A DNA stretch of 64,000 nt from Escherichia coli (GCF_003334785.1 NZ_QOWV01000012.1); one strand, 5' to 3'. Shown: positions 7,461 through 54,267, counted from the stretch's first letter. The notes: generated by a model from the sequence alone, not told the origin. Program-made: numbers and translations.

Positions 7461-7471
7461 CCAGGAACAAC

Positions 7472-7669
7472 ATGAAATCATTAACCACGGAAACCGCACT
7501 GGATATTCTGATTGCGTGGCTGCAGGACAATATCGACTGCGAATCGGGAATTATCTTTGACAACAATGAGGATAAAACGGATTCAGCAGCACTGTTGCCC
7601 TGTATCGAACAGGCCAGAGAGGATATCCGTACCCTGCGCCAACTGCAGCTTCAGCACCAGAACCGGTGA
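7472..7669 (+). CDS. small hypothetical prophage protein (65 aa)
   Basis: ORF following yeeW-like gene; internal Met chosen; no motif recognised. Confidence 0.3.
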   Translation: MKSLTTETALDILIAWLQDNIDCESGIIFDNNEDKTDSAALLPCIEQAREDIRTLRQLQLQHQNR

Positions 7670-8605: not shown

Positions 8606-8628
8606 TGATCGTTTCCAGCAACCTTTAC

Positions 8629-8871: not shown

Positions 8872-8950
8872 GCCTGCAAGTGAAGATATATTACCTTGAT
8901 CTCATTTGTTTTTTTGCTGCCTGTTCTGAGAACGTATAAGGACATTCTCC

Positions 8951-9601
8951 ATGAATAAACTCCCTGATCATCTTCCGCGGCGGTATATCATCGAAGCTAT
9001 CCATTTATGGGATGCGGGAGAAACTCATCAGTTCCAGCCTGCGCGGTTGTATGAGATTGAATATCATGGCCGACGTTACCCCTCGAAGGCGATTGCTGGC
9101 ATCGCAGCGACATTGATGACGGGGACGCAATTTACCCCTGCGGATTTCACCGGCGGAATAAAATCTAAATGTGTCAAGCTACTCATAGAGCAGGGATTTC
9201 ATATTCATCTGGATAAAGCCGCTGCGGCTCCCATAGCCGACGTTCTGTTCCCGGATGAGTTGCCGTCGCAGGAGACATACCTTGAAGGTGCGGCGATAAA
9301 GGTGACAGTAAACCGCTATGAACGCGATAAAAAGGCCCGAGATAAAGCGGTCGAACATCATGGATGCCAGTGCAACGTATGCGGTGTTGATCTGGTGAAG
9401 ATCTATGGTGATATCGCTGAAGGCTTTATCCATGTGCATCACCTGGTGCCGCTGTCAGCCATTAAAGAGGATTACCAGCTGGATCCAGTTAATGATTTGC
9501 TGCCTGTGTACCCTAATTGCCATGCGATGTTGCACCGACGCAAACCACCGTTTACGCCGGAGCAGTTAAAAGCGCTGATGGATGCGAATAAATCAAATTA
9601 A
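8951..9601 (+). CDS. HNH endonuclease with an extra N-terminal domain (type IV restriction-like)
   Basis: C-terminal HHGCQCNVCG...FIHVHHLVPLS...NDLLPVYPNCHAMLHRR is a canonical HNH (C-x2-C, HH, N, C-x2-H) motif; about 120 aa of unrelated N-terminal sequence; AAGGA Shine-Dalgarno upstream of ATG. Confidence 0.7.
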   Translation: MNKLPDHLPRRYIIEAIHLWDAGETHQFQPARLYEIEYHGRRYPSKAIAGIAATLMTGTQFTPADFTGGIKSKCVKLLIEQGFHIHLDKAAAAPIADVLFPDELPSQETYLEGAAIKVTVNRYERDKKARDKAVEHHGCQCNVCGVDLVKIYGDIAEGFIHVHHLVPLSAIKEDYQLDPVNDLLPVYPNCHAMLHRRKPPFTPEQLKALMDANKSN

Positions 9602-9608
9602 TGAACGC

Positions 9609-10589
9609 TCACCTTTCGCGCCAAAACTGCAAAATTGCTTCTACAAACTTGTCAGAAATAATCCCCCGACGGGCTGCCGTGCTGAAATGACTGCTTCGCA
9701 GTGCCGTCGTCCAGTTCTCCGGTGACCGGTACGCTGAACCGTAATATCCCGTGCTTAAATCGTCCGGGTCTTCATCAGGCGCGTTCGTCAGTCCTCTTTC
9801 ACCTTGTTGCTGGAAGTCGACGAAAATAATATTGGCTAAAACATTATTTTGATAATTGCCATAAATAACTTCATACGCATGAGGGAAATTTTCTTTCCAG
9901 TACCAGGTGGTATCGCCGCAAAACCACGGTGCGTCAGTAATATTATTAAGCTGAGAATGGTATTGTTTTAGATCCCTACGAAAGGCTTCAACCATATGAT
10001 TAAAGTGTTGAGGGTGTGACGCGTAGTCACTGGTCATTAAGTCAAATTCGCCTTGCATCCAGCATACGCCGAGGAATTTGTTATGCGGATTTTTTGCCAG
10101 TGCGGCTCGCGTTCTGCTGACTAAATCCTGGTATAGCGGAGTATCCGTTCCCCAACGACAAGCATCATGGCTGGCTCCGTGCCGTTCTGAATATGTCCCT
10201 TCGCTGCCCGCGGTAAAAGCCGATCCGCCACGGCAACACGGAACGATGAGAACCCCTGCATTATCAGGAATAAAGGGCAGTAATTTCCGTGCTATATGCA
10301 GTGCCTGGCCAACGGTGCCGTACTGTGTTTGATGATTCGTTGCCAGAGGATGGTGATAACCCTGCATATCCTGAACATCGTGTGGGCAGTGAGTCAGTGG
10401 AATCATGTCGTTAAAGTGACATGGCGGGCCTCCGGGATGCGTATGCGCAAATCTCGCTAATTGTTTGATTCTGGGATGAGGCGCATCTTCCCTGTCCGGT
10501 AATGGCAGTCCTTCGCCATACGCCATGGCATTAGACTGACCAGCAATGGTAAGAATATAGTAATAATCGGGCGATATTATTGCGTTCAT
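9609..10589 (-). CDS. nanS: 9-O-acetyl-N-acetylneuraminate esterase NanS
   Basis: MNAIISPDYYYILTIAGQSNAMAYGEG... matches NanS (YjhS); start at the internal Met giving 326 aa; synteny with nanM and nanC. Confidence 0.85.
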   Translation of the reverse strand: MNAIISPDYYYILTIAGQSNAMAYGEGLPLPDREDAPHPRIKQLARFAHTHPGGPPCHFNDMIPLTHCPHDVQDMQGYHHPLATNHQTQYGTVGQALHIARKLLPFIPDNAGVLIVPCCRGGSAFTAGSEGTYSERHGASHDACRWGTDTPLYQDLVSRTRAALAKNPHNKFLGVCWMQGEFDLMTSDYASHPQHFNHMVEAFRRDLKQYHSQLNNITDAPWFCGDTTWYWKENFPHAYEVIYGNYQNNVLANIIFVDFQQQGERGLTNAPDEDPDDLSTGYYGSAYRSPENWTTALRSSHFSTAARRGIISDKFVEAILQFWRER

Positions 10590-10653
10590 ATAAATTTCGC
10601 GTAATTGAAATGACAAATTGATAGCAGGGCCCCTTTACCGGGGCCCTGAAGCG

Positions 10654-11760
10654 TTAGTTTTGTACTGTAACTTTATTATCCTTCACAGAGATCAAAACTG
10701 AATCCGTCACCGCTTTGCCGCCTGCAGTTTCACCGCCAATAATCAATAGACTATTATTCCAGGGCAATGATACTCCGTAGGCCCGACCTTGCGATAATTC
10801 ACCCGATTTATCCCATTTCCCGTTATGCCAAAGATGAATATCAGTGCTATATGATTTTTTCAGGCCTTCATGCGCATAGTTCTTACCGTTCTGGTAATTT
10901 TCTCGTGAACCTTTGAATCCGGCCCCTCCGGCAAATATAAGAGAATCATTGCTTATCCCCGCAAAACCGCCAGCTACGCCATCTGGTGATGAGACGGGAG
11001 CAAGCTTATTCCATTTTAAATTATTACCGGTGAAATCAAGTTCAAATACGGCATCCGTTCGCAATCCTGGTTTGGCTTCGCCATTAATAAGCCAGGTTTT
11101 ATCACCTTTATTCACAACCGCCGCACCAGCCGTTCCGTACCAGGGCGATTCGCCAGCGTAACTCCATTGCTGTGTTGAGGGATCAAAAGACAACAGAAAC
11201 TTATTGAAAAAATAATCTTCTGCTTTTTTGTCAAAATAGTGAGCGTTGATTTTATCTATAGCGGTTGAATCTTTTCCAGCCTCGTTGAGATCTTCAAAAT
11301 AGCCATTGAAGATATTCTGGTTAACACCGCCAGTAACATAAGCCTTGCCGTTGTGTACAAAAGTTACATGACCCGCCATGCCCATCGGTGCGTGCGACAT
11401 CAATTTAACCCAACTATTGGTTTTGGGGTTGTATTTGTGTACGTCATTAAATACCTGAGTCAAGCCCTCGCTGTTTTTGCCAATGCCGCCAAACACATAC
11501 AGATTGCCATCAATAAATGCCGAGGTTGCTTGATCTCTTGGTCCACCAGGGAATGCAGCTAACGCTTTCCATTTTTTATCTTTGGCCTGTGTATCCAGCT
11601 TGTACCATGCCGTACCTGCGCTACCTAAACCAATGTAGACAGTGTCGTTATCAATTGCTCCGGTACCACTTTTAAATGGCACAGGAGTTTCCGGTAATAC
11701 AGACGCGTTTGCGGCAAATGAAGCCATCATGATAGCAAGCGCCGTTATTGTTTTATTCAT
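10654..11760 (-). CDS. nanM: N-acetylneuraminate mutarotase NanM (kelch repeats)
   Basis: MNKTITALAIMMASFAANASVLPETPVPFKSGTG... signal peptide plus kelch repeats; 368 aa from the internal Met. Confidence 0.85.
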   Translation of the reverse strand: MNKTITALAIMMASFAANASVLPETPVPFKSGTGAIDNDTVYIGLGSAGTAWYKLDTQAKDKKWKALAAFPGGPRDQATSAFIDGNLYVFGGIGKNSEGLTQVFNDVHKYNPKTNSWVKLMSHAPMGMAGHVTFVHNGKAYVTGGVNQNIFNGYFEDLNEAGKDSTAIDKINAHYFDKKAEDYFFNKFLLSFDPSTQQWSYAGESPWYGTAGAAVVNKGDKTWLINGEAKPGLRTDAVFELDFTGNNLKWNKLAPVSSPDGVAGGFAGISNDSLIFAGGAGFKGSRENYQNGKNYAHEGLKKSYSTDIHLWHNGKWDKSGELSQGRAYGVSLPWNNSLLIIGGETAGGKAVTDSVLISVKDNKVTVQN

Positions 11761-11779
11761 TGTGACTGTCTCCTGTCTA

Positions 11780-12496
11780 CTACAGTTTAAATGACACACC
11801 AATGCGATAACTGTTTTCCGATAAATTATCTCTGCCGTTGTAAACACCCTGACGGTCAAGGTAGTCATATTCTATGTATGGCGTAATATCCGGCGTCATA
11901 TGGTATTGTAGAACAAATGCATTTTCCGTCGCCCATTTCTTATGGTTTGCATAGCGATAATCGTTCTGTTTGCTGTATAGCGTCGTTTGCCATGCGAAGG
12001 TGAAATCACTATTAATATGGTAAGTGACATATCCATCCCAACGATGAACGTTATCACGAGACATATCACCGGATAAGTCTTGTTGTCGGTAAGCTTTCCA
12101 GTCGTAACGATAGCGAATGCCAAAATTAAGATCTTTTGTCGCGTCCCAGGACAGTTTTACGTAGGGTCCGTAGCGTGTGCCGTTGCTGCTAAAATGCGTT
12201 AACATTCCCGGGCGCACCGTCCATTGATCATCAAGTTTAATCGCGTAATTAACATCAACCTGAACATCATTGAGTGCGGCATTTTCCTTTTTATTATCAT
12301 GAATGGTATTCCAGGTATTACTTTCCATACTTGCCCACCATCCATTTTGCCATCCCTCACTGACTTTGAGTCGAGTCTCATAGGCGTGGCTTCCACTACG
12401 ATATCCACCACGTACGTCCAGTGTCGCAGCTTGAGAAATTAATGGTGACGAAAAGCACAGTAATAATACGCCAGAAAGTATTTTAGCCTTTTTCAT
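11780..12496 (-). CDS. nanC: N-acetylneuraminic acid outer-membrane channel NanC (KdgM family)
   Basis: MKKAKILSGVLLLCFSSPLISQA... signal peptide, beta-barrel-like sequence ending ...YRIGVSFKL; 238 aa. Confidence 0.85.
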   Translation of the reverse strand: MKKAKILSGVLLLCFSSPLISQAATLDVRGGYRSGSHAYETRLKVSEGWQNGWWASMESNTWNTIHDNKKENAALNDVQVDVNYAIKLDDQWTVRPGMLTHFSSNGTRYGPYVKLSWDATKDLNFGIRYRYDWKAYRQQDLSGDMSRDNVHRWDGYVTYHINSDFTFAWQTTLYSKQNDYRYANHKKWATENAFVLQYHMTPDITPYIEYDYLDRQGVYNGRDNLSENSYRIGVSFKL

Positions 12497-12920
12497 AAAT
12501 TTCACTCATTTGTAGGAAACAGAAAGCAATACAAAGCCCGCATAAACAATTAGCATTTATGTTGTGTAATATTTTTTTGCCAGGCTTATAGTGTCTTTGG
12601 CAACCGGTAGCTGTATTTTATATTTTTTGTATAAGGTCTCCTGTGAAAAATCTCTTTTCACATTATTTAAATAAACAGAGAGCCAGATTAAATACCTGAG
12701 TATAAAATCTCTTCTGATGTTTAATTGATTTGAATGTTCGTAAGCTATATCACTTACTCAATCCATTTTACCCAGAGTCATAAAATAGAGTGTCTGTTGA
12801 TCTCATTTTCATATTCCTTTCAGACTGAAGTGCATTTTCATCACCCGATGTGAAAGAACTGAAGTGATGTTTGCCATAGATTGCGAGATGCCCTGTCTCA
12901 TTGACTATCTTGGTGCACCT

Positions 12921-12935
12921 TTATACCTGTTATAC
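12921..12935 (-). promoter_or_regulatory. NanR-type operator (GGTATA direct repeats) in the nanC-fimB intergenic region
   Basis: Plus strand TATACCtgtTATACC is the reverse complement of GGTATAacaGGTATA, the NanR hexamer-repeat operator pattern. Confidence 0.45.
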
Positions 12936-13951
12936 CAGATCAAAAATCACGCAATCCATACAACAAAACCAGATTTGCAATTCGTGTCACAAAATATGTC
13001 GATATTTTTCTAAGAAGAAGATGCCATGTGAAGCCAAACGAACACTTGCGGAGGCCTTCACAAACCAAGGGTTGTTATTTAATTATCTGTTTTATAAGTA
13101 ATTTATTTAGAGTATAAACAAGGAAAGATTTGCAAGATAACTCAGTGGGCGTGGTGAAAATAAGTGTTTACCCGCCATCAGGCTGAGCATAATTCTCATC
13201 ATGAAATATGTTTCCTGGTTTGTGGCTTGTAGCTGGTCACTCCTGAAGTCTCTCTGGAGAGGCTTGTTGATGTTGGTGTTTTCAGGATGATGTTTCACTT
13301 AGCTTGTTTGCCGAATAGCCCGGCGAACAGCTGTGATTGAGGAAGGTTTAAGTCGCAGTGACCAAAGCCATATTTACCAACGGATGCAGATGAAAAAATC
13401 ATCTCCTGCTTTCCCCCATATCTCCAGGATAAAAAGGAATGTAACAATCTCATGAACTAAACTGACGAACCAGCCAGGAATAATCGCTAGGGACCTAAGA
13501 ATTAGCCTGATAATAGCTACTAAGAAATTACTGCGTTCCATGAAATAGCCATTTTGTGGCAAATGGAGTTGTCTAATAATGTCATATGTGAGACGGATAG
13601 TTGAACGAATATTAAATTTTGCTGAATTTTTTATGTTGATTTTACTTGTTACAGAACATATCACATGATATATAGATAAGATTAGTTGCATTAATGATGA
13701 GGGTTATTATTAGATTCGTATCCGATTGATAAATATATAAAGGTACATAGCATGCAAGAGCATAGCGTTTGTATGGCAACGTTATTATAAGTAACTGTTG
13801 CTACTCCATTTAAGTTCACTCAGAAGAACTGGTCCACTTACGTTAGTTATTAAGCAAACGTTCGCTTTTATAAACATAATCAGGATAAAAATGTTGGATT
13901 ATTGCTAACCCAGCACAGCTAGTGCGCGTCTGTAATTATAAGGGAAAAACG

Positions 13952-14554
13952 ATGAAGAATAAGGCTGATAACAAAAAAAGGAACTTCCTGACCCATAGTG
14001 AAATCGAATCACTCCTTAAAGCAGCAAATACCGGGCCTCATGCAGCACGTAATTATTGTCTGACTTTGCTTTGTTTTATTCATGGTTTCCGGGCGAGTGA
14101 AATTTGTCGATTGAGGATTTCGGATATTGATCTTAAGGCAAAGTGTATATATATCCATCGATTAAAAAAAGGCTTTTCAACAACGCACCCGCTATTGAAC
14201 AAAGAAGTTCAGGCTTTAAAAAACTGGTTGAGTATCCGTACTTCGTACCCGCATGCTGAGAGCGAATGGGTATTTTTATCGCGTAAGGGAAATCCGCTTT
14301 CTCGGCAACAGTTTTACCATATTATCTCGACTTCCGGTGGTAATGCCGGGTTGTCACTGGAGATTCATCCGCACATGTTACGCCATTCGTGTGGTTTTGC
14401 TTTGGCGAATATGGGAATAGATACGCGACTTATCCAGGATTATCTTGGGCATCGCAATATTCGTCATACTGTCTGGTATACCGCCAGCAATGCAGGGCGT
14501 TTTTACGGCATCTGGGATAGAGCCAGAGGACGACAGCGTCACGCTGTTTTATAG
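13952..14554 (+). CDS. fimB: type 1 fimbriae switch recombinase FimB
   Basis: MKNKADNKKRNFLTHSEIESLLKAANTGPHAARNYCLTLL... tyrosine recombinase, 200 aa. Confidence 0.9.
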   Translation: MKNKADNKKRNFLTHSEIESLLKAANTGPHAARNYCLTLLCFIHGFRASEICRLRISDIDLKAKCIYIHRLKKGFSTTHPLLNKEVQALKNWLSIRTSYPHAESEWVFLSRKGNPLSRQQFYHIISTSGGNAGLSLEIHPHMLRHSCGFALANMGIDTRLIQDYLGHRNIRHTVWYTASNAGRFYGIWDRARGRQRHAVL

Positions 14555-15031
14555 AGATAGTTGAGATACCAGGGATGGTGTTAAAAACTACATTATTCTT
14601 ACGATATATCAAAAATGATTAACCATTTATTAATTGATGTTATTGTAAGTGTGATTATTAATTTTCATAATAAACATTAAGTTAACCATATCCATACAAA
14701 ATACAATGGTTTATGTTCTTAAAAATAAATAAACAAAATCATTCATAAATTTACACATCACTTAAATTCTCCTGTTTCCGCACTTTTTTCTTTATTTTTT
14801 AAGCAACTGGAAGTTAATCCACTGCAATCTATTGTTATATTGAATCAAATCAATGAAAATAGATGTTATCACATCAGTGATATTTTATTTTTGTATGATA
14901 TTTAATGTAATTGACTGATAGCCACATCACTTCGTGTGTGGTTATCTTTTTATCTATTGGGCTAATTTTGACCGATTGAGGTTTCCTATAGGTATTCATT
15001 CAAATATATCTCAGTCAGGAGTACTACTATT

Positions 15032-15628
15032 GTGAGTAAACGTCGTTATCTTACCGGTAAAGAAGTTCAGGCCATGATGCAGGCGGTTTGTTACGGGGCA
15101 ACGGGAGCCAGAGATTATTGTCTTATTCTGTTGGCATATCGGCATGGGATGCGTATTAGTGAACTGCTTGATCTGCATTATCAGGATCTTGACCTTAATG
15201 AAGGTCGAATAAATATTCGCCGACTGAAGAACGGATTTTCTACCGTTCACCCGTTACGTTTTGATGAGCGTGAAGCCGTGGAACGCTGGACCCAGGAACG
15301 TGCTAACTGGAAAGGCGCTGACCGGACCGACGCTATATTTATTTCTCGCCGTGGGAGTCGGCTTTCTCGCCAGCAGGCCTATCGCATTATTCGCGATGCC
15401 GGTATTGAAGCTGGAACCGTAACGCAGACTCATCCTCATATGTTAAGGCATGCTTGCGGTTATGAACTGGCGGAGCGTGGTGCAGATACTCGTTTAATTC
15501 AGGATTATCTCGGGCATCGAAATATTCGCCATACTGTACGTTATACCGCCAGTAATGCTGCTCGTTTTGCCGGATTATGGGAAAGAAATAATCTCATAAA
15601 CGAAAAATTAAAAAGAGAAGAGGTTTGA
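15032..15628 (+). CDS. fimE: type 1 fimbriae switch recombinase FimE
   Basis: GTG start; MSKRRYLTGKEVQAMMQAVCYGATGARDYCLILLAYRHGMRISELL...; 198 aa. Confidence 0.9.
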   Translation: MSKRRYLTGKEVQAMMQAVCYGATGARDYCLILLAYRHGMRISELLDLHYQDLDLNEGRINIRRLKNGFSTVHPLRFDEREAVERWTQERANWKGADRTDAIFISRRGSRLSRQQAYRIIRDAGIEAGTVTQTHPHMLRHACGYELAERGADTRLIQDYLGHRNIRHTVRYTASNAARFAGLWERNNLINEKLKREEV

Positions 15629-40840: not shown

Positions 40841-41785
40841 ATGACAAACTTCACGACCAGCACGCCGCATGACGCATTGTTTAAATCTTTTCTCACGCAT
40901 CCGGATACCGCGCGGGATTTTATGGAGATCCACTTACCTAAAGATTTACGTGAACTGTGCGATCTCGACAGCTTAAAACTTGAATCCGCCAGCTTTGTCG
41001 ATGAAAAATTGCGGGCGCTACATTCCGATATTCTGTGGTCGGTAAAGACCCGCGAAGGCGATGGCTATATTTATGTGGTGATTGAACATCAGAGCCGCGA
41101 GGATATTCATATGGCCTTTCGCCTGATGCGCTATTCTATGGCGGTGATGCAGCGCCATATCGAGCATGATAAACGCCAGCCGCTACCGCTGGTCATCCCG
41201 ATGCTGTTTTATCACGGTAGCCGTAGTCCTTACCCCTGGTCCCTGTGCTGGCTGGACGAATTTGCCGACCCGACTACCGCACGGAAAGTTTATACCGCCG
41301 CGTTCCCGCTGGTGGATGTCACTGTCGTGCCAGACGACGAGATTGTGCAGCACCGCAGAGTCGCTCTGTTGGAGTTGATCCAAAAGCATATTCGCCAGCG
41401 CGATCTGATGGAGCTTATCGATCAACTGGCAGTATTACTGGTTACAGGGTGCGCTAATGACAGCCAGATAACCGCGCTGTTAAATTACATTTTACTGACT
41501 GGCGATGAAGCGCGTTTTAAGGCGTTTATCAGCGAACTTACCAGGCGAATGCCACACCACAGGGAGCGAATAATGACAATTGCAGAGCGAATTCATAATG
41601 ATGGATGGCTGTTGGGAAGGGAGAAAGGGAAAGAAGAAGGGGAACAGCGCCTCCTCCGATTGTTGTTGCAGAATGGGGCAGATCCTGAATGGATACAAAA
41701 GATTACCGGACTTTCGGCAGAGCAAATGCAGGCATTAGAGCAGCCCTTGCCTGAAAGCAAGCGCGAACCATGGATCGAATACTAA
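40841..41785 (+). CDS. rpnD: recombination-promoting nuclease RpnD (YhgA-like PD-(D/E)XK family), intact 314-aa frame
   Basis: Single uninterrupted [69 protein letters not shown]...; YhgA-like family features. Confidence 0.75.
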
Positions 41786-43781: not shown

Positions 43782-44277
43782 GGGGGGATATAAATTTATA
43801 TAATAAAACGTTTTTATGTTTTTAAATTAAGTTATAAAAATTTTCCCGAGACTATTCATCAATAGGTATGGAGTGTACAGGAATATCTTCTTCACTAACC
43901 TCTTTAAACTCATGTCGATAATGGTCAAAAAACGCACAGTGATTACTTGTGTTTTTTGACTGACTTTACAACTCTCATTATTCGCTATTGTGAAGTTTCT
44001 CTAATTGTTTTATATCCTGGAAAGTTAAATGTTAGTTACTGCATACTTTTTTATTTTTTGAGATTTATTTTCATTTGAAATTATAAAGTCAGGTGATAAA
44101 TGAGTTGTGATTAATAGATAGTTGATATCATTTTTATCTAAAATTGATTTATGGTGCCGACCTGAAAAATTAGCTATTGCCGCCTGATTAATTATACGAT
44201 ATTTTTAAAGGTTTTCTTTCAAATTAGAAATATTCTGGGGTTTTGTTTTTGTATCTTTTATCTCTAAGGAGCTTGCT

Positions 44278-47043
44278 TTGGGTCAATCAGAATACATTTC
44301 ATGGGTAAAATGTACTTCCTGGCTAAGTAACTTTGTGAATCTTAGAGGGTTGAGACAACCGGATGGCCGTCCTCTTTATGAATATCATGCAACCAATGAT
44401 GAATATAACCAATTAACGCAGCTACTCCGTGCAGTCGGTCAATCACAATCTAATATATGTAATAAGGACTTTGCTGCCTGTTTTGTTCTTTTTTGCTCTG
44501 AGTGGTACCGCAGGGATTATGAACGGCAATGCGGATGGACGTGGGACCCTATATATAAAAAAATAGGGATTTCATTTACCGCCACAGAGCTTGGTACCAT
44601 CGTACCGAAAGGGATGGACGATTACTGGCTGCGCCCAATTCGATTTTATGAATCTGAACGACGCAATTTTCTCGGAACATTATTCAGTGAAGGTGGTTTA
44701 CCTTTCCGGTTACTCAAAGAATCAGACAGTCGCTTTCTGGCTGTTTTCTCCAGGATCCTTGGACAATATGAGCAAGCAAAGCAGTCAGGTTTTTCTGCCC
44801 TTTCGCTGGCAAGAGCCGTCATAGAAAAATTAGCGCTGCCAACTGTTTTTAGCGAAGATACTTCTGTAGAACTTATCAGTCATATGGCTGATAACCTCAA
44901 TTCCTTAGTACTTACTCACAACCTAATAAATCACAAAGAACCAGTACAACAGCTTGATAAGGTTCACCCTACCTGGCGAAGCGAGTTTCCAATACCGTTA
45001 GATGATGAAACAGGAACGCATTTTTTGAATGGACTGCTATGCGCAGCCTCTGTAGAGGCTAAGCCTCGACTACAAAAAAATAAGAGTACGCGTTGCCAAT
45101 TCTATTGGTCAGAAAAGCATCCAGATGAGCTTAGGGCGATAGTATCTCTCCCTGACGAAGTTTCCTTTCCTGTAACAAGCGAGCCGTCAACTACGCGCTT
45201 TGAACTTGCCATTTGTGAAGATGGTGAGGAAGTCTCTGGCCTTGGGCCAGCTTATGCTTCCCTGGAAAACAGACAGGCAACAGTTCGATTACGTAAAAGC
45301 GAAGTGAGATTTGTCAGGCAAAATCCATCGGCAGGTTTGTCGTTAGTGGCTCGTGCTGGAGGGATGATTGTTGGGAGCATTAAACTTGATGACAGTGAAA
45401 TTGCCATTGGTGAGGTGCCGTTAACCTTCATCGTTGATGCAGATCAATGGCTGTTACAGGGACAGGCCTCCTGTAGTGTGCAAAGCAGCGATGTTCTGAT
45501 TGTGCTCCCTCGGGACAATAGTACTGTTGCTGGTTTTGATGGCCAATCGAGTGCAGTAAACGTATTAGGACTTGTCGCTATGACTCTGGCGGTTGCTCTG
45601 CGTCAGGCGCTAGCGGGCGTTCTGGGTATCTCCGGCGCAGAACTCGGCTATTCTGTACGCCCGGTCAGACTGGAGGATGGGCAATCGGTATTAGCCGTTC
45701 AGCTTTATGATGTGATCAGCGGTGGTGCAGGTTTTGCCTCCAGCGCACCGGTACACATTGAAGCTATTTTGCAGGGAATGGTGAAACAGTTAGGTTGCCG
45801 CCATTGTGATACTGCATGTAGTGAATGCCTGCTTGATTCCCAGACTCGCCACGATCACGATTTGCTGGATCGCAAAGCGGCGCTGGCCTGGCTTGGCGAT
45901 GACTTCACGTATTACATCGGTTTACCGGATGAAGAGACATTCTCGCTGCCGGATGCCCGCTACTGCCCTGGCGCTATTGGCGATACGATTCGCCGGGCGA
46001 TTAACGAAGGCGCTGAAAAGCTCACCCTGTGGATGACCGGCGCGCCCAATGAGTGGGATTTATACGCCCGTCAGTTCCGCGCGGCGGTTCAGAGCTATCG
46101 GCTAAAAGACAACGTCGAGGTCGATCTTGTTATACCTGCGGGAGTGGATGACCCGGATCTGTTGTATGAACTATCGCAATTTACTGCGCTGGGTGTGCGG
46201 CTGTGCCATGTTGAACAGGATCTGCAATTGCCGATCGTTGCCCAGGTTACCTTTGCCGATCGCGTGATGACGCTGGCTTCTCGCAGCCAGCAGGCAACGA
46301 TTCCGGGGCCGGAGTGGCACCTGAATGACGAACTGGTGGTGCGTAGTCTCGGTTATAAAACGGTAGAACTGAACGAGTTTATTCTGCCGGCTAAAGCCGC
46401 CAACGCTGTCGAGCGGGTCAAAGACATTCAGATCCACAAACAGTTGAATGGACCACTTTCGCAGTTTGGACAACGCTTCTGGGACGTGCTGTTTAACGAC
46501 CATGAAGAAGCACAGTCACTGATGAATAACACGCGAATTACCGGCGTTCACTATACCGATCGCTATCTGCAAAACCCGGTTGCGCTGGCGTTGTTGGGAT
46601 CAATTCTGAGACCGCTAAAAACAAAGCTGACCGATGGCGCTGAAGTGGCGCTGGATACGCTGTTTAAAGATAAAGATCGCCCCGGTAACCGGCCTTTCCA
46701 TGACTGGATGAGCATAGCGGATTTTCAGGATTTCGCTGATCAGTGGTTTGCTGCTGCGCTGGGCAGGCCGATAGAACTAACGGTGTTCGACTCGCCGCGC
46801 GATATCCCTCACCATCGTAAACTGACGGTGACTTTTGAGGATGGTCAGGTTTTGAAGATCCGCTTCGATCAGGGGATGGGCTACTGGCGTATCAACTTTG
46901 CATCGCAATGGCATTACTTTGACTTCCGCGATGACGTTTCTTTCCAGTTAGTCAAAATGGCTCAGGCCTGCAATGAAGGAAATGTGGCCAACAGCGAAGA
47001 GAGCTGGGCAACGGATGTGCTGGTGGAGGTGAGCGCCTCCTGA
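44278..47043 (+). CDS. orphan 921-aa protein of the immigration-control region; contains GG-x-G plus C-x2-C-x3-C-x2-C motif (DUF1998/MZB-like zinc ribbon); function unknown, candidate defence protein
   Basis: Long uninterrupted ORF; TTG start 6 nt after AAGGAG; motif [13 protein letters not shown]...[34 protein letters not shown] at nt ~45715-45830; occupies the slot where K-12 carries yjiT/yjiV and mcrBC. Confidence 0.8.
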
Positions 47044-47050: not shown

Positions 47051-47082
47051 CCGCTCCCGATGTGGTGTCGGGAGCGTTTTTC
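47051..47082. terminator. intrinsic terminator hairpin between the convergent 921-aa ORF and symE
   Basis: gctcccga-tgtggtg-tcgggagc stem-loop followed by TTTTT on the plus strand. Confidence 0.55.
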
Positions 47083-47085
47083 CAT

Positions 47086-47427
47086 TCAGGCAACTTTCTG
47101 TTTACCGGCAATCACCCCAATAAATTCCTGCACCTGCTTTTGTTTACGCGCCGACAGCTTGCACACCCTGCGCAGCGACTGCATCAGTTCGCTCTCTTCG
47201 GCGGCGGGTGGTTGAGCGGTGAGGACGATGCAGCCTTCCATCACTTTGACATCTACCGCCGTGCCGGTGGCAAAACCGGCGGCTTCCAGCCACTGACCTT
47301 TCAGGGTGATGGCGGGAATATGCGCGTGATCCGGGTAGCGGCTCGCATAACCGACGGTGACATGACGGTTATTTGCCGGAGAGACTTCTGCTTCGAACGG
47401 TTGTGCAATAGAATACGTGTCAGTCAT
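47086..47427 (-). CDS. symE: SOS-induced toxin-like endoribonuclease SymE
   Basis: [74 protein letters not shown]...; 113 aa from the internal Met. Confidence 0.85.
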
Positions 47428-47497
47428 AACTGCTATTCTCCGATAATAGTGATTGTGATGAGCGGTGCGGGTGTGTTGGCGCACATCCGCACCGCGC
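47420..47497 (+). ncRNA. symR: cis-antisense sRNA SymR (position inferred, boundaries approximate)
   Basis: In K-12 SymR is encoded opposite the symE start/5'UTR; here an inverted repeat gcggtgcgg...ccgcaccgc at 47462-47496 lies in the corresponding position. Confidence 0.4.
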
Positions 47498-47503
47498 TAA
47501 ATA

Positions 47504-47521
47504 CCTGGATATATCATCAGT
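47504..47521. promoter_or_regulatory. LexA box of the symE promoter
   Basis: Reverse complement reads CTGATGATATATCCAG (CTG-N10-CAG with AT-rich centre) upstream of symE. Confidence 0.45.
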
Positions 47522-47654
47522 AAATACAGGGAAAGTCCAGCTAAAAATAGAATAAAATGGTCAGTTCCTGGAATGATTTAAATATATTTATGTGAGTTAT
47601 GATTGGCGTGAAATAATAAAAGGCGCACCGGAAAGGTGCGCCAGAAAATAATGA

Positions 47655-48968
47655 TCAGGATTTTTTACGCGAGGCTTTTTTACCTCCGCTGGCTGCGCGT
47701 TCAGCTTTGATTTTTTCCAGCAACGCGGCGGCGCTGTTTTCTCCGCTGATTAATTCCGGGTTTTCGGCCCGCCACTGGGCGGTGAGTTCACCACGGAACG
47801 CTTTTGCCAGGATGGATTGCGTCAGGTTGTTAACGCGGGCTAAGGCGTTGTTGACCTGTTTTTCTATGGTGTCTGCGTAGGCGAAGAGCTGCTCGACGCG
47901 GCGAACGATTTCGTGTTGTTCGGGGAGTGGAGGAACAGTTATTGGGTATGCAATTAATTTCTGTGCATTAATATTTGATTGACTGACCCCATCAGATTTT
48001 ACTGAGTAGCAATATTGCCTCCCCAAAATGCTATTTAAATGGTAGTTAAGATAGTCAGGGTTTAAATCAGGTAAACATTGAACCCTAATCAAATAACCTG
48101 CATAAATAGCTGGTTGCTCTGATTTATATATGGCTGTTTTCCCGACAAGTTCAGGACTATTTGTACGATTGAATAATACATCATTGTACTCAAGTTTATA
48201 CTTTTCAATTTCTATGGTATCTGAAGTATAGACTAGATCCGTCCAGTCCAATTTTCCGCCCTGAAGATTGCCCATTCTTAATACAGGAATGAGTCCTTCT
48301 TTATTAGACTTAGATGACGTTCCATAACTTGGTTTTTTTATAAATTCCCCAAGTTTGCCTTCTATCCACCCAGACAGGCTCGAATTATCTCTCCAGTCTT
48401 CAGTTAGTTTTCCACTTACCGCGGCACCCAGCACCGCCTGACGAAAACGTTTCAGGATTTGTGGGATTTGCTCAAGACGTGCTTTGGTGCTCTCTACCTG
48501 CGCCAGCAGCGTATCGAGTTTTTCAGCGATGATTTTTTGTTCTGAAATTGGAGGAAGTTGTATTTCCCAAGCCTCCATTCCAGCTTTGGTAATATGTGGC
48601 ATTGCCACGCCGTGAGCCGATGCTTTAAGTGCCTCTGTAATATTCAATAATGCATAATAAGCAAATTGCTTATTAAGTGCAGGGGATGTTTCAATCTTCC
48701 AAATATGGTAGTGATAAATTAGTTTATGATCCCACTTCGACCAATATGGACCAAATGTTGCTGACCAAGCATATAGGAGATCATTTTTATAGCAATATTT
48801 ATCTTCCTGTAGCTCTAAGTTGGAATAAAACCATTTATTCCCTCCATTCAAATTTTGAATTCTGAGAATAGGAACACCTTCTGTGAGCATTTCTTCTTTC
48901 TTATATGCTCTGCCATTGATGAGGGTCAAAACATCACCCAACTGGCATATTTGCCAATTTTTACTCAT
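47655..48968 (-). CDS. hsdS: type I restriction-modification specificity subunit HsdS (437 aa, type IA framework, target-recognition domains unlike EcoKI)
   Basis: Conserved central and C-terminal repeats (PPISEQKIIAEKLDTLLAQVE... and PPLPEQHEIVRRVEQLFAYAD...) flank two AT-rich variable domains; ATGA overlap with hsdM. Confidence 0.9.
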   Translation of the reverse strand: MSKNWQICQLGDVLTLINGRAYKKEEMLTEGVPILRIQNLNGGNKWFYSNLELQEDKYCYKNDLLYAWSATFGPYWSKWDHKLIYHYHIWKIETSPALNKQFAYYALLNITEALKASAHGVAMPHITKAGMEAWEIQLPPISEQKIIAEKLDTLLAQVESTKARLEQIPQILKRFRQAVLGAAVSGKLTEDWRDNSSLSGWIEGKLGEFIKKPSYGTSSKSNKEGLIPVLRMGNLQGGKLDWTDLVYTSDTIEIEKYKLEYNDVLFNRTNSPELVGKTAIYKSEQPAIYAGYLIRVQCLPDLNPDYLNYHLNSILGRQYCYSVKSDGVSQSNINAQKLIAYPITVPPLPEQHEIVRRVEQLFAYADTIEKQVNNALARVNNLTQSILAKAFRGELTAQWRAENPELISGENSAAALLEKIKAERAASGGKKASRKKS

Positions 48969-50554
48969 TCCTTCACCCCACCAAACGCTTCTTCCAGCAA
49001 CTGACGCTGTGCATCCGCCTCATCGCTCGCCCCCAGTTCACGCATCAGCGCATCCAGTTCACCCAGCGCCTGTACCAGTTCGCCCATCGCTTCTGCCGCT
49101 AATACATCCGGCTCCGGCAGGTTGTCGGCGTCAATGCTGTCTTTATCTTTCAGCCAGGAGATATCCAGCGAATCGGATTTCGCGGAGCGGATCCACTCGC
49201 GGCTGAACTTGCGCCAGCGGCTGGTAGCCAGATGCTGATCGGTATTTTTGTTCTCTTCGCTGTCGGCAACTTCCGTCTCTTCGGCGTTAAAACTCCATTC
49301 CCCTTCAGTACGCGGGCTTAAGCCGTGGGGATCTTCGCCATACACGCGCTCAAACGGCTGCAAATGCTCGTCGGTAAACGGCGTGCGTTTACCAAAGCTC
49401 GGCATATTGGTCCGCAGGTCGTACACCCACACGTCGTCGGTGCAGTTCTTATCCTGATGCGGGTTCGCCACTGTGCCTTTGGTAAAGAACAGCACGTTGG
49501 TCTTCACGCCCTGCGCGTAAAAAATACCGGTCGGCAGACGCAGAATGGTGTGCAGATGACACTTATCCATCAGGTCACGACGGATGTCGGTGCCTTTGCC
49601 GCCTTCAAACAACACGTTATCTGGCACCACCACCGCCGCACGACCGCCGGGATGCAGCGTTTCGATAATATGCTGCATAAAGCACAGCTGTTTGTTGCTG
49701 GTCGGGTGAACAAAGGTGCGGGTAATGTTGGTGCCTGCGGCGCTGCCAAACGGCGGGTTAGTGGCGACAATATGCGCCTTCGGCAGGTTTTCACCGTCGC
49801 TGCCCAGGGTGTTGCCCAGACGGATTGCGCCGCCGTGGTCGAGGTTGCCTTCAATATCGTGCAGCAGGCAGTTCATCAGCGCCAGACGACGGGTGCCGGG
49901 CACCAGTTCGAGGCCGATAAACGCGCGGTGGATCTGGAAATCCTGTGTGTCGCCATCAAGGTCGTCCAGATCGTTAGTCTGCGACTTAACGTAGCGGTCG
50001 GCTTCAATCAAAAAGCCCGCCGTACCCGCTGCCGGGTCCTGCACCACTTCACGCGGCTGCGGTTTCAGCAGATGAATAATGGTTTTAATCAGCGGACGCG
50101 GGGTGAAGTACTGGCCCGCGCCAGACTTGGTTTCGTTCGCGTTCTTCTGCAACAGCCCTTCGTACATATCGCCGAAGTCATCGCGCGACTTACCGTGCGC
50201 ACCGTTGTACCAGTCCAGTGAATCCATATTGCTGACCAGTTCGGTCAACTGTTTTGGCTGGGTAATGGTGGTGTTGACGTTCTGGAACACCGCCTGCACC
50301 AGCTTTTGATTGTCGGCGCCCAGATGTACCAGCAGGTTACGGTAGAACTGCAACTGCTCCTGACCGATACGGGATTTCAGGTCGTCCCAGCGGTAGCCTT
50401 CCGGCAGGTATTCCGCTTCCTGTCTGGTTTCTTTACACATTTTCAAAAACAGCAGCGAGGCGAGTTCATTGACGTAGTTTTGATAGGAAACGCCGCCATC
50501 GCGCAGGTTGTCGCACAGCTTCCACAGCTTGGCGACCAGATCGTTATTGTTCAT
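48965..50554 (-). CDS. hsdM: type I restriction-modification N6-adenine methyltransferase HsdM
   Basis: 529 aa; NPPF catalytic motif (HIVATNPPFGSAAG); sequence closely matches EcoKI-family HsdM as recalled. Confidence 0.9.
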   Translation of the reverse strand: MNNNDLVAKLWKLCDNLRDGGVSYQNYVNELASLLFLKMCKETRQEAEYLPEGYRWDDLKSRIGQEQLQFYRNLLVHLGADNQKLVQAVFQNVNTTITQPKQLTELVSNMDSLDWYNGAHGKSRDDFGDMYEGLLQKNANETKSGAGQYFTPRPLIKTIIHLLKPQPREVVQDPAAGTAGFLIEADRYVKSQTNDLDDLDGDTQDFQIHRAFIGLELVPGTRRLALMNCLLHDIEGNLDHGGAIRLGNTLGSDGENLPKAHIVATNPPFGSAAGTNITRTFVHPTSNKQLCFMQHIIETLHPGGRAAVVVPDNVLFEGGKGTDIRRDLMDKCHLHTILRLPTGIFYAQGVKTNVLFFTKGTVANPHQDKNCTDDVWVYDLRTNMPSFGKRTPFTDEHLQPFERVYGEDPHGLSPRTEGEWSFNAEETEVADSEENKNTDQHLATSRWRKFSREWIRSAKSDSLDISWLKDKDSIDADNLPEPDVLAAEAMGELVQALGELDALMRELGASDEADAQRQLLEEAFGGVKE

Positions 50555-50639
50555 TGTGAGTTCCGTAAATTAAGCAGCGGCCCAAATTTATTGGGCCGCA
50601 TAAGAATAAATTGCCGAGGGTAATATACACAAAATCATT

Positions 50640-50755
50640 CAGGTTGCATCAAGGCGGCAAGTGAGTGAATCCCCGGGAGCGTACAGAAGTACGTGACCGG
50701 GGTGAACGAGCGCAGCCAACGCAGAGGCAGCCTGAAGGATGAAGTGTATACGTGT
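50640..50755. repeat. ERIC (IRU) intergenic repeat between hsdR and hsdM
   Basis: aagtgagtgaatccccgggagcgtacagaagtacgtgaccggggtgaacgagcgcagccaacgcagag matches the ERIC consensus. Confidence 0.7.
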
Positions 50756-53700
50756 CAGGCCAGCTCGTCCCAGATATAATCGCTGAATTTATCGAGCAGG
50801 TTGTCGAGATTATCGTCAAAGGTTCTTTGCAGCATCGCCTTCCCGCCGCGACGGTGGAAGTTGCCGGTTTTGAAGACATCGTCGTCGAGCACCACTTTCT
50901 CTTTCAGCGCCTGTGCTAAACGATCGAGCCAGCTTAATTGCTCGCTGCTCCAGTCGTTTTCGCCCTTGATGCGCGTCAGCGCGTGATCGACACGTTCCTC
51001 AAACGGTTTCAGCGCATCGCCCACCGCAGCGCGGCGAATATGTCCAATCAACCGGGCGGCAATATCTTCATTACGCGTCTCTTTCCACGCTTTGCGCAGG
51101 GAAGATTCCTCAAAGTGCTGGCGGTCAAACCACTCCTGGAGTTCGACCAGCCCTTTACGGGTGAGATCGCGCGGGCGATTGATCACCGCCTGCAATGCCG
51201 GTTGCGCGTTCGGGGAACGTTGCACCAGCGAGTCAAAGGCTTCGAGGAAATCCTGCGGCGTGTCGTAATCACCGTACAGCGATTTTACGCTCAACACTTC
51301 ATCGTCGATATCGAGGAAGATCGGCGCATCATTCAGGTTATTGATATCAGTTTTCAGCTTTTCCAGGCGGGCGATAAAGCCAGGCAGCTTGTTAAAGACT
51401 TCGGCGCTCCAGTGCGGCCCTTTTTCCCGCAGGCGCGAGGCGAAGCCGTTAAAGCCCACCCCCGCCGCGTCCTGGCATAGCTCATCCAGACGACGCACCT
51501 GTTTATCTATCGTTTCGCTGCGGTCACGGTTAAACGTGGCCAGGCCGATGATGCGCTGGAGCTTCGCCACCAGTTGTTCATGGCTGTGCTCGGCAAAACT
51601 GCGGCCATCCGCTTCGGTGATTTTATAGGTTTCTGAATCGGTAATTTCGTTGACCAGCGTTTGCAGCTCCACCTTAGGACGCACCACCACCGGACGCATG
51701 GTGTCGACGCTCTCCAGCGTGCTGTATATATCGACGCAGTCGAAAATCTTAAAGCTGGTTTTATTCACGTCCGGGCACAAGCGCGTGGCGCGGCCTTTCA
51801 TCTGCTCGTACAGAATACGGCTGCGTACTTTACGCAGGAACACGATGTTACAGATCGACGGAATATCGACGCCGGTCGTCAGCAGGTCGACGGTTACCAC
51901 AATATTGGGCAGCCGCTCTTTATTGAAGCGGGTGATCATGGTCTGCACTTTGCGCGCGTCTTTATCGGCATCACCGGTGATCTTGATTATCGCGTCGTGC
52001 TCCAGTTGCGGATACTTTTTCTTGAACGCGGTACGCAACTCTTCCACCACCATATCGGCATGGGCATTGGTGACGCAGAAGACCAGCGTTTTTTGCGACC
52101 CGGTCGGGTCAAGGTAGTTGGTGAGTTCGTTACAGACGGCGCGGTTAAACGCCGGGATCACCAGGCCACGGTTAAAGTCGGCGACCTCAAAATCCTGATC
52201 GTCTTCCAGGGTGTCGTTGATTACTTCCCCCTGCGGGCTGATGCGCTCTACCTGTTCGCCTTTGGAGAGATAAACACCCTCCTGTGCGTTGCGGGTGGTG
52301 ATCTGAATTGGTGGATCCTGGTCGATCAGAAAACCGTCGATAACCGCGGTACGGTAGGTATAACGGTAAACCGGCTCGCCGAAAATCTGCACCGTATGCA
52401 ACGCCGGGGTGGCGGTGAGGGCGATTTTTATCGCATCGAAGTGATCGAGAATGCGACGGTAGGCAGAGACATAATCCAGCTGGCTGCGGAACTGTAGTTC
52501 GCCTTCGGTCTGCTCTTTATCGAGAATATAGCCGCGATGCGCTTCATCGACGACGATACAGTCGTAACGGGCCACCGGCATCGGTTCATCTGATTGCAGG
52601 GTGCGTTTCACCAGCGACTGTACGGTGGCAACGTGAATTTTGGTGCTGTCTTCCGGGAATTTATCCGTCAGCCCTTTAATGTCGAAAATGCTGTTGAAGG
52701 TGTCGCCGTTAATACGCGTATCTTCAAACGCCCCCAGCGCCTGCTCGCCAAGAGAACGGCGATCCACAAGGAAGAGAATGCGTTTAAAACGCTGGGACTG
52801 GATCAGGCGGAACATCATGGCAATTGCGGTGCGGGTTTTACCGGTACCGGTCGCCATCGCCAGCAGGATCTCTTGTTGACCCTTGACGATTGCCTTTTCC
52901 ACCGCGCGGACGGCATCTTCCTGATAATAACGCAGGCCCAGCTCGCTCATGCCGGGATTATCGGCAAACCACTGATTCTGTTTTTGCGGTTCGCTGCCGA
53001 GCATTTCCAGCAGCTCTTCCGGGCGATGCCACTCGGGTAAGGCTTTCGACATATTGCGGGTATCACGCACGTCGCGATACCAGATGCCACTTTTAGTCTT
53101 CATTGCTGCGCGGTATTCGCGCCCGTTGGTGGAGTAGCAGAAGGGGATTTTAAACCGTTGTTGGCCGCTGGAGTCCTGCCAGCTAGTTTCATACTCCGGC
53201 ACCGCTTCATGCACTTCATCCGGTGAGTAGTGCTCAAGCAAGGTTTCCCGCAGGAAGCCATTATCGAAGCATTTACTGTAGCGATACGACTCATTGAGCT
53301 TGCCGGGAACGTCGATATTTTTACGTTTCGCCTCTACCACCGCGATGGGTTTGAGGCCGACAAACAGCACATAATCCGCAAAGCCCTGTTTACCCGTTTC
53401 ATCTTTCCCGGTCGGCCATTCGGCAATGGCTTTATTGACGCCGGGTTCCGGGCGCGCGCCTTTGGAGAAGCGCAGGGTTTTGCTATCGGCCTGCCAGCCT
53501 GCTTTACGCAGTTGCGCATCAATCAGGAAGCGGCTCTCTTCTTCGCTAAGGTTGAGTGTGCGCTTGATGGCCTGATCGGTAATTTCTTTGTGGTAAGCCT
53601 TACGTTCCTGTTCAGTCTGTTTGGCCAGTTCCGCGTTCTTCTCGGCGAGCTGTGCTTCCAGCGCCGCAAGGCGAGCCTGGGTTTGCGCTTCTGTTTCCTG

Positions 53701-54267
53701 CTGTTTGCCTTCCAGAATAGCGATATAGCCGTTCAGGGCAACCAGCTTCTGCTGTTGCGCTTCGACTTCTGCCTGAGTCTGCGCTTTTTCTCGCACCTGC
53801 TGTTCAAGCTGTTGTTTTAGCGTCAGCACTTCCTGGTGATAGAGGTTCTCGCCACGTTCTGGTAACACAAACACCGGCACCGGGAAGTCATAATCTTTAG
53901 TGACCAGACGGTAGTACCAGACAGCCAGGCGGAACCCGAGTCGCAGGCACATCTGGGCATCGTCGAGATCGTTGTGATATTCGTGCACCGCCTGGTTACC
54001 AATGCGGCGTAATTTGTGAAATACAGAGAGAATGTTGTCATCAACGAAGGCGATTTTGCCGAGTTCGCGCAGGAGATCGTGTTGATTCTCACAAGGGGGG
54101 ATGTTGAGTAACAGACCAAGATGTTTCGCTGTGGCTTCGCCAAACATACGCATTTTAATTAGCGTCGTATTGGGATCATCCGGGTAGTTATTTTCCGCCG
54201 CACAGGCGATGGCATAAGTGAAGTCGTTGACGCCCTTCAGGAATTCGAAGTTGGATTTATTCATCAT
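50755..54267 (-). CDS. hsdR: type I restriction endonuclease/translocase HsdR
   Basis: 1170 aa; Walker A (AMATGTGKTRTA) and DEAH-like (VVDEAHRG) helicase motifs; operon context. Confidence 0.9.
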   Translation of the reverse strand: MMNKSNFEFLKGVNDFTYAIACAAENNYPDDPNTTLIKMRMFGEATAKHLGLLLNIPPCENQHDLLRELGKIAFVDDNILSVFHKLRRIGNQAVHEYHNDLDDAQMCLRLGFRLAVWYYRLVTKDYDFPVPVFVLPERGENLYHQEVLTLKQQLEQQVREKAQTQAEVEAQQQKLVALNGYIAILEGKQQETEAQTQARLAALEAQLAEKNAELAKQTEQERKAYHKEITDQAIKRTLNLSEEESRFLIDAQLRKAGWQADSKTLRFSKGARPEPGVNKAIAEWPTGKDETGKQGFADYVLFVGLKPIAVVEAKRKNIDVPGKLNESYRYSKCFDNGFLRETLLEHYSPDEVHEAVPEYETSWQDSSGQQRFKIPFCYSTNGREYRAAMKTKSGIWYRDVRDTRNMSKALPEWHRPEELLEMLGSEPQKQNQWFADNPGMSELGLRYYQEDAVRAVEKAIVKGQQEILLAMATGTGKTRTAIAMMFRLIQSQRFKRILFLVDRRSLGEQALGAFEDTRINGDTFNSIFDIKGLTDKFPEDSTKIHVATVQSLVKRTLQSDEPMPVARYDCIVVDEAHRGYILDKEQTEGELQFRSQLDYVSAYRRILDHFDAIKIALTATPALHTVQIFGEPVYRYTYRTAVIDGFLIDQDPPIQITTRNAQEGVYLSKGEQVERISPQGEVINDTLEDDQDFEVADFNRGLVIPAFNRAVCNELTNYLDPTGSQKTLVFCVTNAHADMVVEELRTAFKKKYPQLEHDAIIKITGDADKDARKVQTMITRFNKERLPNIVVTVDLLTTGVDIPSICNIVFLRKVRSRILYEQMKGRATRLCPDVNKTSFKIFDCVDIYSTLESVDTMRPVVVRPKVELQTLVNEITDSETYKITEADGRSFAEHSHEQLVAKLQRIIGLATFNRDRSETIDKQVRRLDELCQDAAGVGFNGFASRLREKGPHWSAEVFNKLPGFIARLEKLKTDINNLNDAPIFLDIDDEVLSVKSLYGDYDTPQDFLEAFDSLVQRSPNAQPALQAVINRPRDLTRKGLVELQEWFDRQHFEESSLRKAWKETRNEDIAARLIGHIRRAAVGDALKPFEERVDHALTRIKGENDWSSEQLSWLDRLAQALKEKVVLDDDVFKTGNFHRRGGKAMLQRTFDDNLDNLLDKFSDYIWDELA

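Follow-up and report, generated by a model that had tools for sequence, protein, structure and literature searches.

Within the window that we analysed, a stretch of 64,000 nucleotides of Escherichia coli DNA (GCF_003334785.1 NZ_QOWV01000012.1), an open reading frame (ORF) of 921 codons is very probably what an inactivated Druantia type III defence system has left in the immigration control region of E. coli, between yjiS and symE-hsdSMR. The ancestral locus held two genes, druH (1096 aa) and druE (2114 aa, with an SF2/MrfA-like helicase, an MZB module and two PLD-like domains), and one in-frame deletion of 6,882 bp fused the 5' end of druH with the 3' end of druE. The features of the locus are the following, the last three (symE, SymR and hsdSMR) being context outside the remnant, with coordinates counted in the window and, for the intact counterpart in E. 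coli KE58, in its locus (L001):

43783..44277, plus strand: AT-rich region (approx. 29-32% GC) between yjiS and druH, from the GC profile and the sequence; presumed druH promoter and leader
44278..47043, plus strand: fusion ORF DruH(1-432)::DruE(1626-2114), 921 aa, Druantia type III remnant
44278..45573, plus strand: druH (yjiT)-derived part, codons 1-432 (PADLOC, NCBIfam, PDB); colinear with KE58 L001 5828-7123
45572..45573, plus strand: deletion junction, with a 2-nt TT microhomology and an imperfect GGA(C)TT (window compared with L001 near 7123 and 14004)
45574..47043, plus strand: druE-derived part, codons 1626-2114 and stop (PADLOC, PDB); colinear with KE58 L001 14006-15475
45589..45831, plus strand: MrfA Zn-binding (MZB, formerly DUF1998) domain, aa 438-518, with four Cys, CRHC...CSEC (PF09369, translation)
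47052..47076, plus strand: terminator-like hairpin, an 11-bp stem then a T run, right after the ORF stop
47086..47427, minus strand: symE, type I toxin (an endoribonuclease), transcribed towards the fusion ORF (MS 124-1 RefSeq annotation, offset 38277; ORF list)
47422..47498, plus strand: SymR antisense RNA, the symE antitoxin (Rfam RF01809, 89.5 bits, gathering score 61)
47655..54267, minus strand: type I restriction-modification genes hsdS (47655-48968), hsdM (48965-50554) and hsdR (50755-54267), all on the minus strand

The immigration control region is the setting of both the type I restriction-modification genes and the fusion ORF. A further ORF of 153 aa (47062-47523, plus strand) was not accepted as a gene, as it has no family match and lies antisense to symE.

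The 921-codon frame opens with a TTG, which is also the RefSeq start in strain MS 124-1, and a Shine-Dalgarno sequence (AAGGAG, 44266-44271) is located 6 nt 5' of it. The region upstream of the ORF is 99.95% identical to that found 5' of the intact druH in KE58. A scan of this region for sigma-70-like promoters returned one weak match (44115-44144), no more than expected by chance; the scan is uninformative on expression. At the other end, the hairpin at 47052..47076 is the kept 3' end of the druE transcription unit. With the presumed promoter, the ribosome-binding site and the start of druH retained, together with the stop and the terminator of druE, the fusion may well be made.

A preliminary description of this DNA had reported a contrast in GC inside the ORF, AT-rich in its 5' part and GC-rich in its 3' part, and this contrast is confirmed by sliding-window GC, by GC3 and by a change-point analysis. 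Indeed, GC lies between 0.29 and 0.47 over 44050-45250, versus 0.50-0.57 from 45400 on (whole-window GC: 0.496), and the two parts of the ORF, split at 45573, differ accordingly (GC: 0.444 versus 0.538; GC3: 0.361 versus 0.578, for 44278-45573 and 45574-47043, respectively; two-proportion z = 4.9). A single change point fitted to the ORF by maximum likelihood reached a 2dLL of 24.9, whereas the maximum among 300 codon shuffles was 14.7, and the step is thus beyond chance. The likelihood is flat over approximately 45178-45573 (2dLL of 24.2 at 45573), so that composition by itself locates the break to a few hundred bases only; homology places it exactly between 45573 and 45574, close to the switch at ‘about 45500’ that had been proposed.

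This homology was obtained from several sources. When the ORF was compared by megablast with 5,426 complete E. coli genomes, it split cleanly in two: nucleotides 1-1295 match yjiT/druH, and the matches to nucleotides 1291-2766, which number in the hundreds of E. coli genomes, lie at the 3' end of a gene named DEAD/DEAH box helicase / DUF1998. At least 80% of the ORF was found in one place in only 10 of these 5,426 genomes. Consistently, the PADLOC profile DruH3 (PDLC00049) aligns its positions 1-437 of 1100 with ORF aa 1-437 (E = 3.5e-214), and DruE3 (PDLC00037) its positions 1564-2054 of 2055 with aa 432-918 (E = 1.7e-129). A split at aa 432/433 is also supported by NCBIfam (YjiT_fam NF038336, positions 1-417 of 1090 on aa 15-431), by Pfam (MZB PF09369, model positions 2-80 of 80 on aa 438-518, E = 1.7e-8) and by PDB (DruH 9tud on aa 14-258; residues 1611-2089 of the DruE chain 9tu7 on aa 433-896). 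In addition, PF27201 and PF27205 (YjiT_N and YjiT_2nd) are recorded for P0001, a protein identical to the ORF product. The view of the ORF as a defence gene, put forward in the preliminary description, is thus borne out, its halves deriving from druH and druE of Druantia III.

In a database of 5.8 billion proteins, both halves of the ORF are covered only by the identical protein, which stands for a cluster of 229 members, and by one other fusion; the remaining matches cover the DruH half alone or the DruE half alone. Query coverages of 58-86% for P0028, P0084, P0104, P0118 and P0120 had prompted us to consider a homology between DruH and the DruE tail. This was rejected on the alignment of P0028, a DruH homologue from another organism, in which an identity of approximately 75% extends to ‘AVNVLGL’ at aa 432 and then collapses, the gapped noise past this point being BLAST over-extension.

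The intact parent of the fusion was recognized in E. coli KE58 (NZ_CP141075), where the genes follow in the order yjiR, yjiS, druH/yjiT, druE, symE, hsdS, hsdM, hsdR. Its druH/yjiT (WP_129967528.1, 1096 aa) occupies 5828-9118 in locus coordinates, and its druE helicase gene (WP_000213434.1, 2114 aa), starting 12 bp after druH, occupies 9131-15475. Both products are full-length matches to the DruH3 and DruE3 profiles (positions 1-1099 of 1100 for DruH), and KE58 DruE can be aligned with 9tu7 over its whole length, which relates the locus to the Druantia III-A system of E. coli ATCC 8739/EDL933 (9tu7 for DruE, 9tud for DruH). The window shares with KE58 its flanks (yjiR, yjiS, symE and the hsdS/M/R alleles), which are 99.95% identical, as well as the promoter region, and the two sequences are colinear on both sides of a single gap, the 2,174 nt on its left differing at 1 position and its right side at none. 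Within the genes, identity is 99.95-100%, both over the 1,296 nt kept from the 5' end of druH and over the 1,470 nt kept from the 3' end of druE. The difference lies in what the window is missing, i.e. 6,882 bp comprising codons 433-1096 of druH, the spacer between the genes and codons 1-1625 of druE, with both RecA domains and the DEAH motif, so that DruH aa 433-1096 and DruE aa 1-1625 are absent. As 6,882 equals 3 x 2294, the reading frame is preserved across the join.

At the junction, the window reads ...GTATTAGGACTT up to the break and GTCGCTATG... beyond it, whereas the left parent reads ...GGACTT AAAGCG and the right parent ...GGCGGATT GTCGCT, TT being common to both. The deletion would have proceeded by illegitimate recombination at this 2-nt microhomology, either through replication slippage or through microhomology-mediated joining. 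In Pantoea, Cronobacter, Serratia, Klebsiella, Salmonella, Pseudomonas and others, DruH homologues of approximately 1095-1119 aa are typically accompanied by separate 2106-aa DruE genes, and because separate full-length druH and druE are usual in Enterobacterales and beyond, the polarity of the event is that of a deletion and not of an insertion.

The compositional step can be followed back to the intact operon. In KE58, druH has a GC of 0.453 (GC3: 0.40) and druE a GC of 0.508, and values climb steadily along the operon from 0.43 at the start of druH to 0.52-0.56 near the end of druE. The same low-to-high ramp is seen in Klebsiella, Serratia, Cronobacter and Pantoea, in druHE operons whose DruH proteins share approximately 60-71% identity with the DruH part kept in the fusion. 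The druHE cassette has thus long had this gradient, and by taking out the middle of the ramp, the deletion left a GC step at the junction.

The junction is carried by other strains. A 300-nt junction probe was 100% identical and uninterrupted in eight complete E. coli genomes, and at least 13 further genomes display the same junction but have an IS3-family element inserted 10 nt beyond it, which brings the identical junction to at least 21 complete E. coli genomes overall. Later damage is visible among these carriers. Indeed, two of the eight uninterrupted genomes are interrupted elsewhere in the ORF, at nucleotide 737, in RM10410 by an IS3-family element (plus IS30) and in NCTC9100 by a nested IS600/IS30 block. 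Z1323CEC0017 bears the IS600/IS30 block together with the insertion beyond the junction, and ORF nucleotides 738-971 are missing from it as well. This nested series shows that the deletion preceded the insertions, and that further damage went unhindered. In public assemblies, the fusion protein heads its 229-member cluster with the 921-codon frame intact; this weighs against simple decay, as the fusion allele is not rare in its lineage and may be expressed. Annotation of the allele varies: PGAP reports two pseudogene pieces in E423, RM10410 and NCTC9100 (‘YjiT, missing C-terminus’ and ‘DUF1998, missing N-terminus’), and the same sequence in MS 124-1 is one normal CDS, a ‘STY4851/ECs_5259 family protein’ (WP_206746689.1). 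The NF038336 score is 503 bits against a curated cut-off of 150, with just positions 1-417 of 1090 matched, and the NF038336 name is formally valid yet masks a truncated chimera.

The loss is one of several at this site. Traces of the druHE family were retrieved in 673 genomes, 232 of which keep at least 80% of the operon, although several of those listed carry IS insertions too, and at least five different deletion states exist between yjiS and symE. In K-12 (yjiT and yjiV), deletions are located at KE58 7337-10353 and 12507-14687, and the first of the two junctions shifts the frame, which runs into a stop at codon 505. EC24 has a 7,260-bp deletion, also out of frame; assembly ERR1937480 has an independent, in-frame deletion of approximately 6.57 kb that yields P0002, a 1023-aa DruH(1-392)::DruE-C protein; B strains keep only the last 3.35 kb of druE; and operon remnants of 51%, 46%, 35%, 29%, 17%, 6% and 1% were found in other genomes. 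An excess of in-frame fusions was considered and rejected, since the independent deletions in K-12 and EC24 are out of frame. Likewise, the right-hand ends of three alleles fall at KE58 13581-14006, but a hotspot of endpoints was judged unconvincing in view of the varied remnants of the wider survey, the ascertainment of deletion endpoints being biased by the probes used. The K-12 pseudogenes yjiT and yjiV resemble the window in their locus, in their druHE cassette (approx. 97% nucleotide identity) and in internal deletions that join the 5' part of druH to druE. They differ in that K-12 underwent two deletions and has mcrBC inserted between the druE 3' end and symE, whereas the window has one in-frame deletion and no mcrBC. 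The 921-aa ORF is a decayed defence locus already known in kind, like K-12 yjiT/yjiV, through a different event.

What the fusion retains of a Druantia III system was assessed from its domains. A full-length DruH has approximately 1,100 aa, distributed over N-terminal, Ig-like and C-terminal domains, and only aa 1-432 are found in the fusion. The SF2 (MrfA/YprA-like) helicase core is absent, as the DruE part begins only at position 1564 of the 2055 in the profile (residue 1611 of 9tu7), and no DEAD or Helicase_C Pfam match was detected in the fusion ORF. By its PF09369 match and its four Cys, the MZB (DUF1998) zinc-binding module is present. The PLD-like tail, which relates to subtype III-A, can be aligned with the last positions of DruE3 and with 9tu7 up to residue 2089; it has one HxK motif (HRK, DruE 2039-2041), kept in the fusion, and no Pfam PLD match. 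Finally, a single fused ORF stands in the place of two adjacent genes, druH then druE. Overall, what is left is the N-terminal region of DruH, the MZB zinc module and probably the two PLD-like domains, whereas the whole helicase core is gone, with most of DruH.

Four studies from 2026 agree that both proteins and the helicase ATPase of DruE are essential, and that DruH requires its N-terminal domain as well as its C-terminal remainder, but they are at odds over the PLD-like domains, taken either for a nuclease or for dispensable (10.64898/2026.05.12.722862, 10.64898/2026.05.13.724758, 10.64898/2026.05.13.724313, PMC13192584). [quoted passage not shown] These published experiments concern divergent Druantia III systems (ATCC 8739/EDL933 and Pseudomonas) and are used here at the domain level only. 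A transfer of individual residues to the KE58 proteins (DruH R1031 and Y733; DruE DEAH 252-254, F887 and others) was given up, as no correspondence was obtained with the divergent ATCC 8739 allele. The ATCC 8739/EDL933 and Pseudomonas systems, divergent alleles that are intact and active, are borne by a satellite-type island that also holds Zorya II and ARMADA II (10.64898/2026.05.13.724758), whereas in the fusion the two outer ends of the operon alone remain, joined together. Moreover, the structural MZB domain of E. coli DruE has been placed between residues 1503 and 1723 (10.64898/2026.05.13.724758), and because the fusion starts at approximately residue 1611, inside this interval, the domain is probably truncated at its N-terminal side. 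With the Ig-like and C-terminal regions of DruH and all helicase domains of DruE lost, the fusion would provide no Druantia defence and would be a drifting pseudogene.

Other origins of the ORF have to be weighed against this reading. The preliminary description saw in it a mosaic gene, whose N-terminal domain had been acquired or swapped onto a resident C-terminal framework. It is indeed a chimera of two sequences differing in composition, but one formed by loss and not by acquisition, and both halves come from the neighbouring druH and druE of one cassette. The recombination of an AT-rich N-terminal specificity domain onto a GC-rich C-terminal framework, in the manner of HsdS target-recognition domains, would agree with the reality of the step in GC and GC3, with the derivation of the halves from different genes and with the position of the ORF in a defence island beside hsdS, a defence gene that itself has abrupt AT-rich segments (34-38% GC in the neighbouring copy). 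However, HsdS mosaics exchange domains between full-length functional alleles, whereas the 921-aa ORF reflects a 6.9 kb loss with no alternative domains at the boundary. Among full-length alleles, no mutually exclusive N-terminal domains on a shared C-terminal framework were seen, and no E. coli allele places a different N-terminal domain on the DruE C-terminal part, such a combination being found neither in the 5,426 complete genomes nor in the 5.8-billion-protein database. The ‘framework’, moreover, is normally the tail of a 2114-aa helicase and not a free-standing gene, and the halves follow two adjacent KE58 genes colinearly (99.95% identity), with the 6,882-bp gap alone between them. Homologues in which both halves always occur together, with the same composition pattern, had been named as an observation that would speak against an exchange, and intact druH-druE operons with this GC pattern occur in five genera. 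A domain swap is therefore extremely unlikely. As for a collapsed or mis-joined assembly, its probability is next to nil: an assembly error can mimic a large deletion against a reference, and nothing specific points to one here, whereas the at least 21 complete genomes with the identical junction were sequenced independently, from varied hosts and countries and on varied platforms, NCTC long-read assemblies included. The junction is also present in many Logan assemblies, and the IS insertions nested on it show that it was inherited.

A last alternative concerns the fate of the fusion and not its origin. The deletion may have created a functional new gene driven from the druH promoter, such as a stand-alone nuclease, a regulator or a decoy, but this seems to us very improbable, and we give equally little credence to a chimera expressed with an activity of its own, for example as a helicase-less PLD-type nuclease or as a modulator of other defence systems. 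A new function would be in keeping with the intact 921-codon frame, its good ribosome-binding site and its terminator, with a junction located 6 aa ahead of the Pfam MZB domain, and with the retention of the HxK motif in the last PLD-like domain. The identical protein at the head of the 229-member cluster, and the independent in-frame DruH-N::DruE-C fusion of similar architecture (P0002), point in the same direction, as do studies that credit the DruE PLD region with nuclease activity (PMC13192584; 10.64898/2026.05.13.724313). However, in the E. coli system the PLD domains were found to be dispensable, and nuclease activity was not seen, according to two studies (10.64898/2026.05.12.722862; 10.64898/2026.05.13.724758), and the probable truncation of the structural MZB domain speaks against an active product. 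In sister genomes sharing the junction, the ORF itself has been hit by IS insertions and by a further deletion, and other independent deletions are out of frame or leave just 1-17% of the operon. P0002 itself came from a protein search, able to detect in-frame fusions only, and an in-frame result is expected for one-third of deletions. If the fusion were functional, the independent in-frame fusions of 921 aa and 1023 aa (P0002) would reflect selection for ‘mini’ derivatives, and not chance.

The interpretation of the ORF as a deletion relic has direct consequences for annotation, as WP_206746689.1 is a druH::druE deletion fusion that defence-system predictors should not score as Druantia. It also bears on how composition is read, since a sharp intragenic GC step may mark a deletion junction in a cassette with a built-in gradient, foreign DNA not being required. 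For E. coli, the fusion represents one more dated example of the frequent decay of Druantia III at the yjiS-symE site.

The sequence bordering the DruH::DruE fusion is nearly identical to that of E. coli KE58, in which druH and druE are intact at the same chromosomal site. Within 2.2 kb on the left side of the junction, the sole difference lies at positions 44830-44832 (codon 185) and is nonsynonymous: the window encodes Leu ('VIEKLALP'), whereas Ser ('VIEKSALP') is found in KE58, in the fusion protein P0002 of the Logan assembly ERR1937480, in the out-of-frame deletion allele EC24 and in P0028, a divergent DruH homologue. Against the MS 124-1 record, the fusion ORF differs by one base. The 495-bp stretch 5' of druH (43783-44277), with a GC content of 28-32%, was kept along with the remnant (99.95% identity to KE58), and K-12 is approximately 97% identical to the window over a stretch covering this region. 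The sequence 5' of druH is likewise AT-rich in Klebsiella, Serratia, Cronobacter and Pantoea (GC 0.28-0.41). H-NS has been reported as a contributor to Druantia defence (2026 preprint, 10.64898/2026.05.13.724758).

A second DruH::DruE fusion was identified in ERR1937480 (locus L013):

4001-7072 of L013: fusion P0002, DruH(1-392) joined to the DruE C-terminal part, 1023 aa

This fusion, also in frame, is independent of that in the window. The deleted segment corresponds to KE58 coordinates approximately 7007-13580, and the haplotype carries mcrBC. Independent druHE fusions number two in frame versus at least two out of frame, a tally compatible with chance.

IS elements have accumulated on the fusion allele of the window (L006, 2382-6413; L007, 145-2524; L004, 1-2410; three loci with the same junction). 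A nested IS600/IS30 block is located at ORF nucleotide 737 in NCTC9100 and Z1323CEC0017, the latter having additionally lost nucleotides 738-971, and an IS3-family element, together with IS30, occupies the same position in RM10410. One group, consisting mainly of poultry isolates, has an insertion 10 nt past the junction: an element of the IS3 family, annotated with an AL1L pseudoknot.

Three further features of the window flank the fusion ORF:

40841-41785, + strand: Rpn-family recombination-promoting nuclease gene, 314 aa, intact
47086-47427, - strand: symE
47422-47498, + strand: SymR antitoxin RNA (Rfam match, 89.5 bits)

The nuclease gene is also intact in KE58 (WP_000181156.1), whereas in K-12 it is a pseudogene with an internal stop. 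On the 3' side, SymR overlaps the 5' end of symE. A 153-aa ORF just 3' of the fusion (47062-47523, + strand) gave no match in family profile searches and was rejected as a gene, being a shadow ORF antisense to symE.

The preliminary description had proposed for the 921-aa ORF a possible acquisition or swap of the kind seen in variable specificity domains. Such target-recognition-domain variation more likely concerns hsdS (- strand), which is AT-rich at 47950-48400 and 48550-49000 (GC 0.34-0.38, versus 0.43-0.53 in the rest of the gene); the HsdS of the window scores 593 bits against the K-12-type HsdS model, under the cut-off of 662.

The gene order druH-druE-(symE)-hsdS-hsdM-hsdR is conserved in at least five Enterobacterales genera (KE58, L001 5828-22699; Klebsiella, Serratia, Cronobacter and Pantoea, L009-L012), with no symE between druE and the hsdS position in Cronobacter. 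The chromosomal surroundings of this block differ between genera, and in Klebsiella it adjoins P4-like satellite genes (Psu, Ogr/Delta, AlpA and a D5-type primase). Druantia III and the type I restriction genes appear to move jointly, as a single island.
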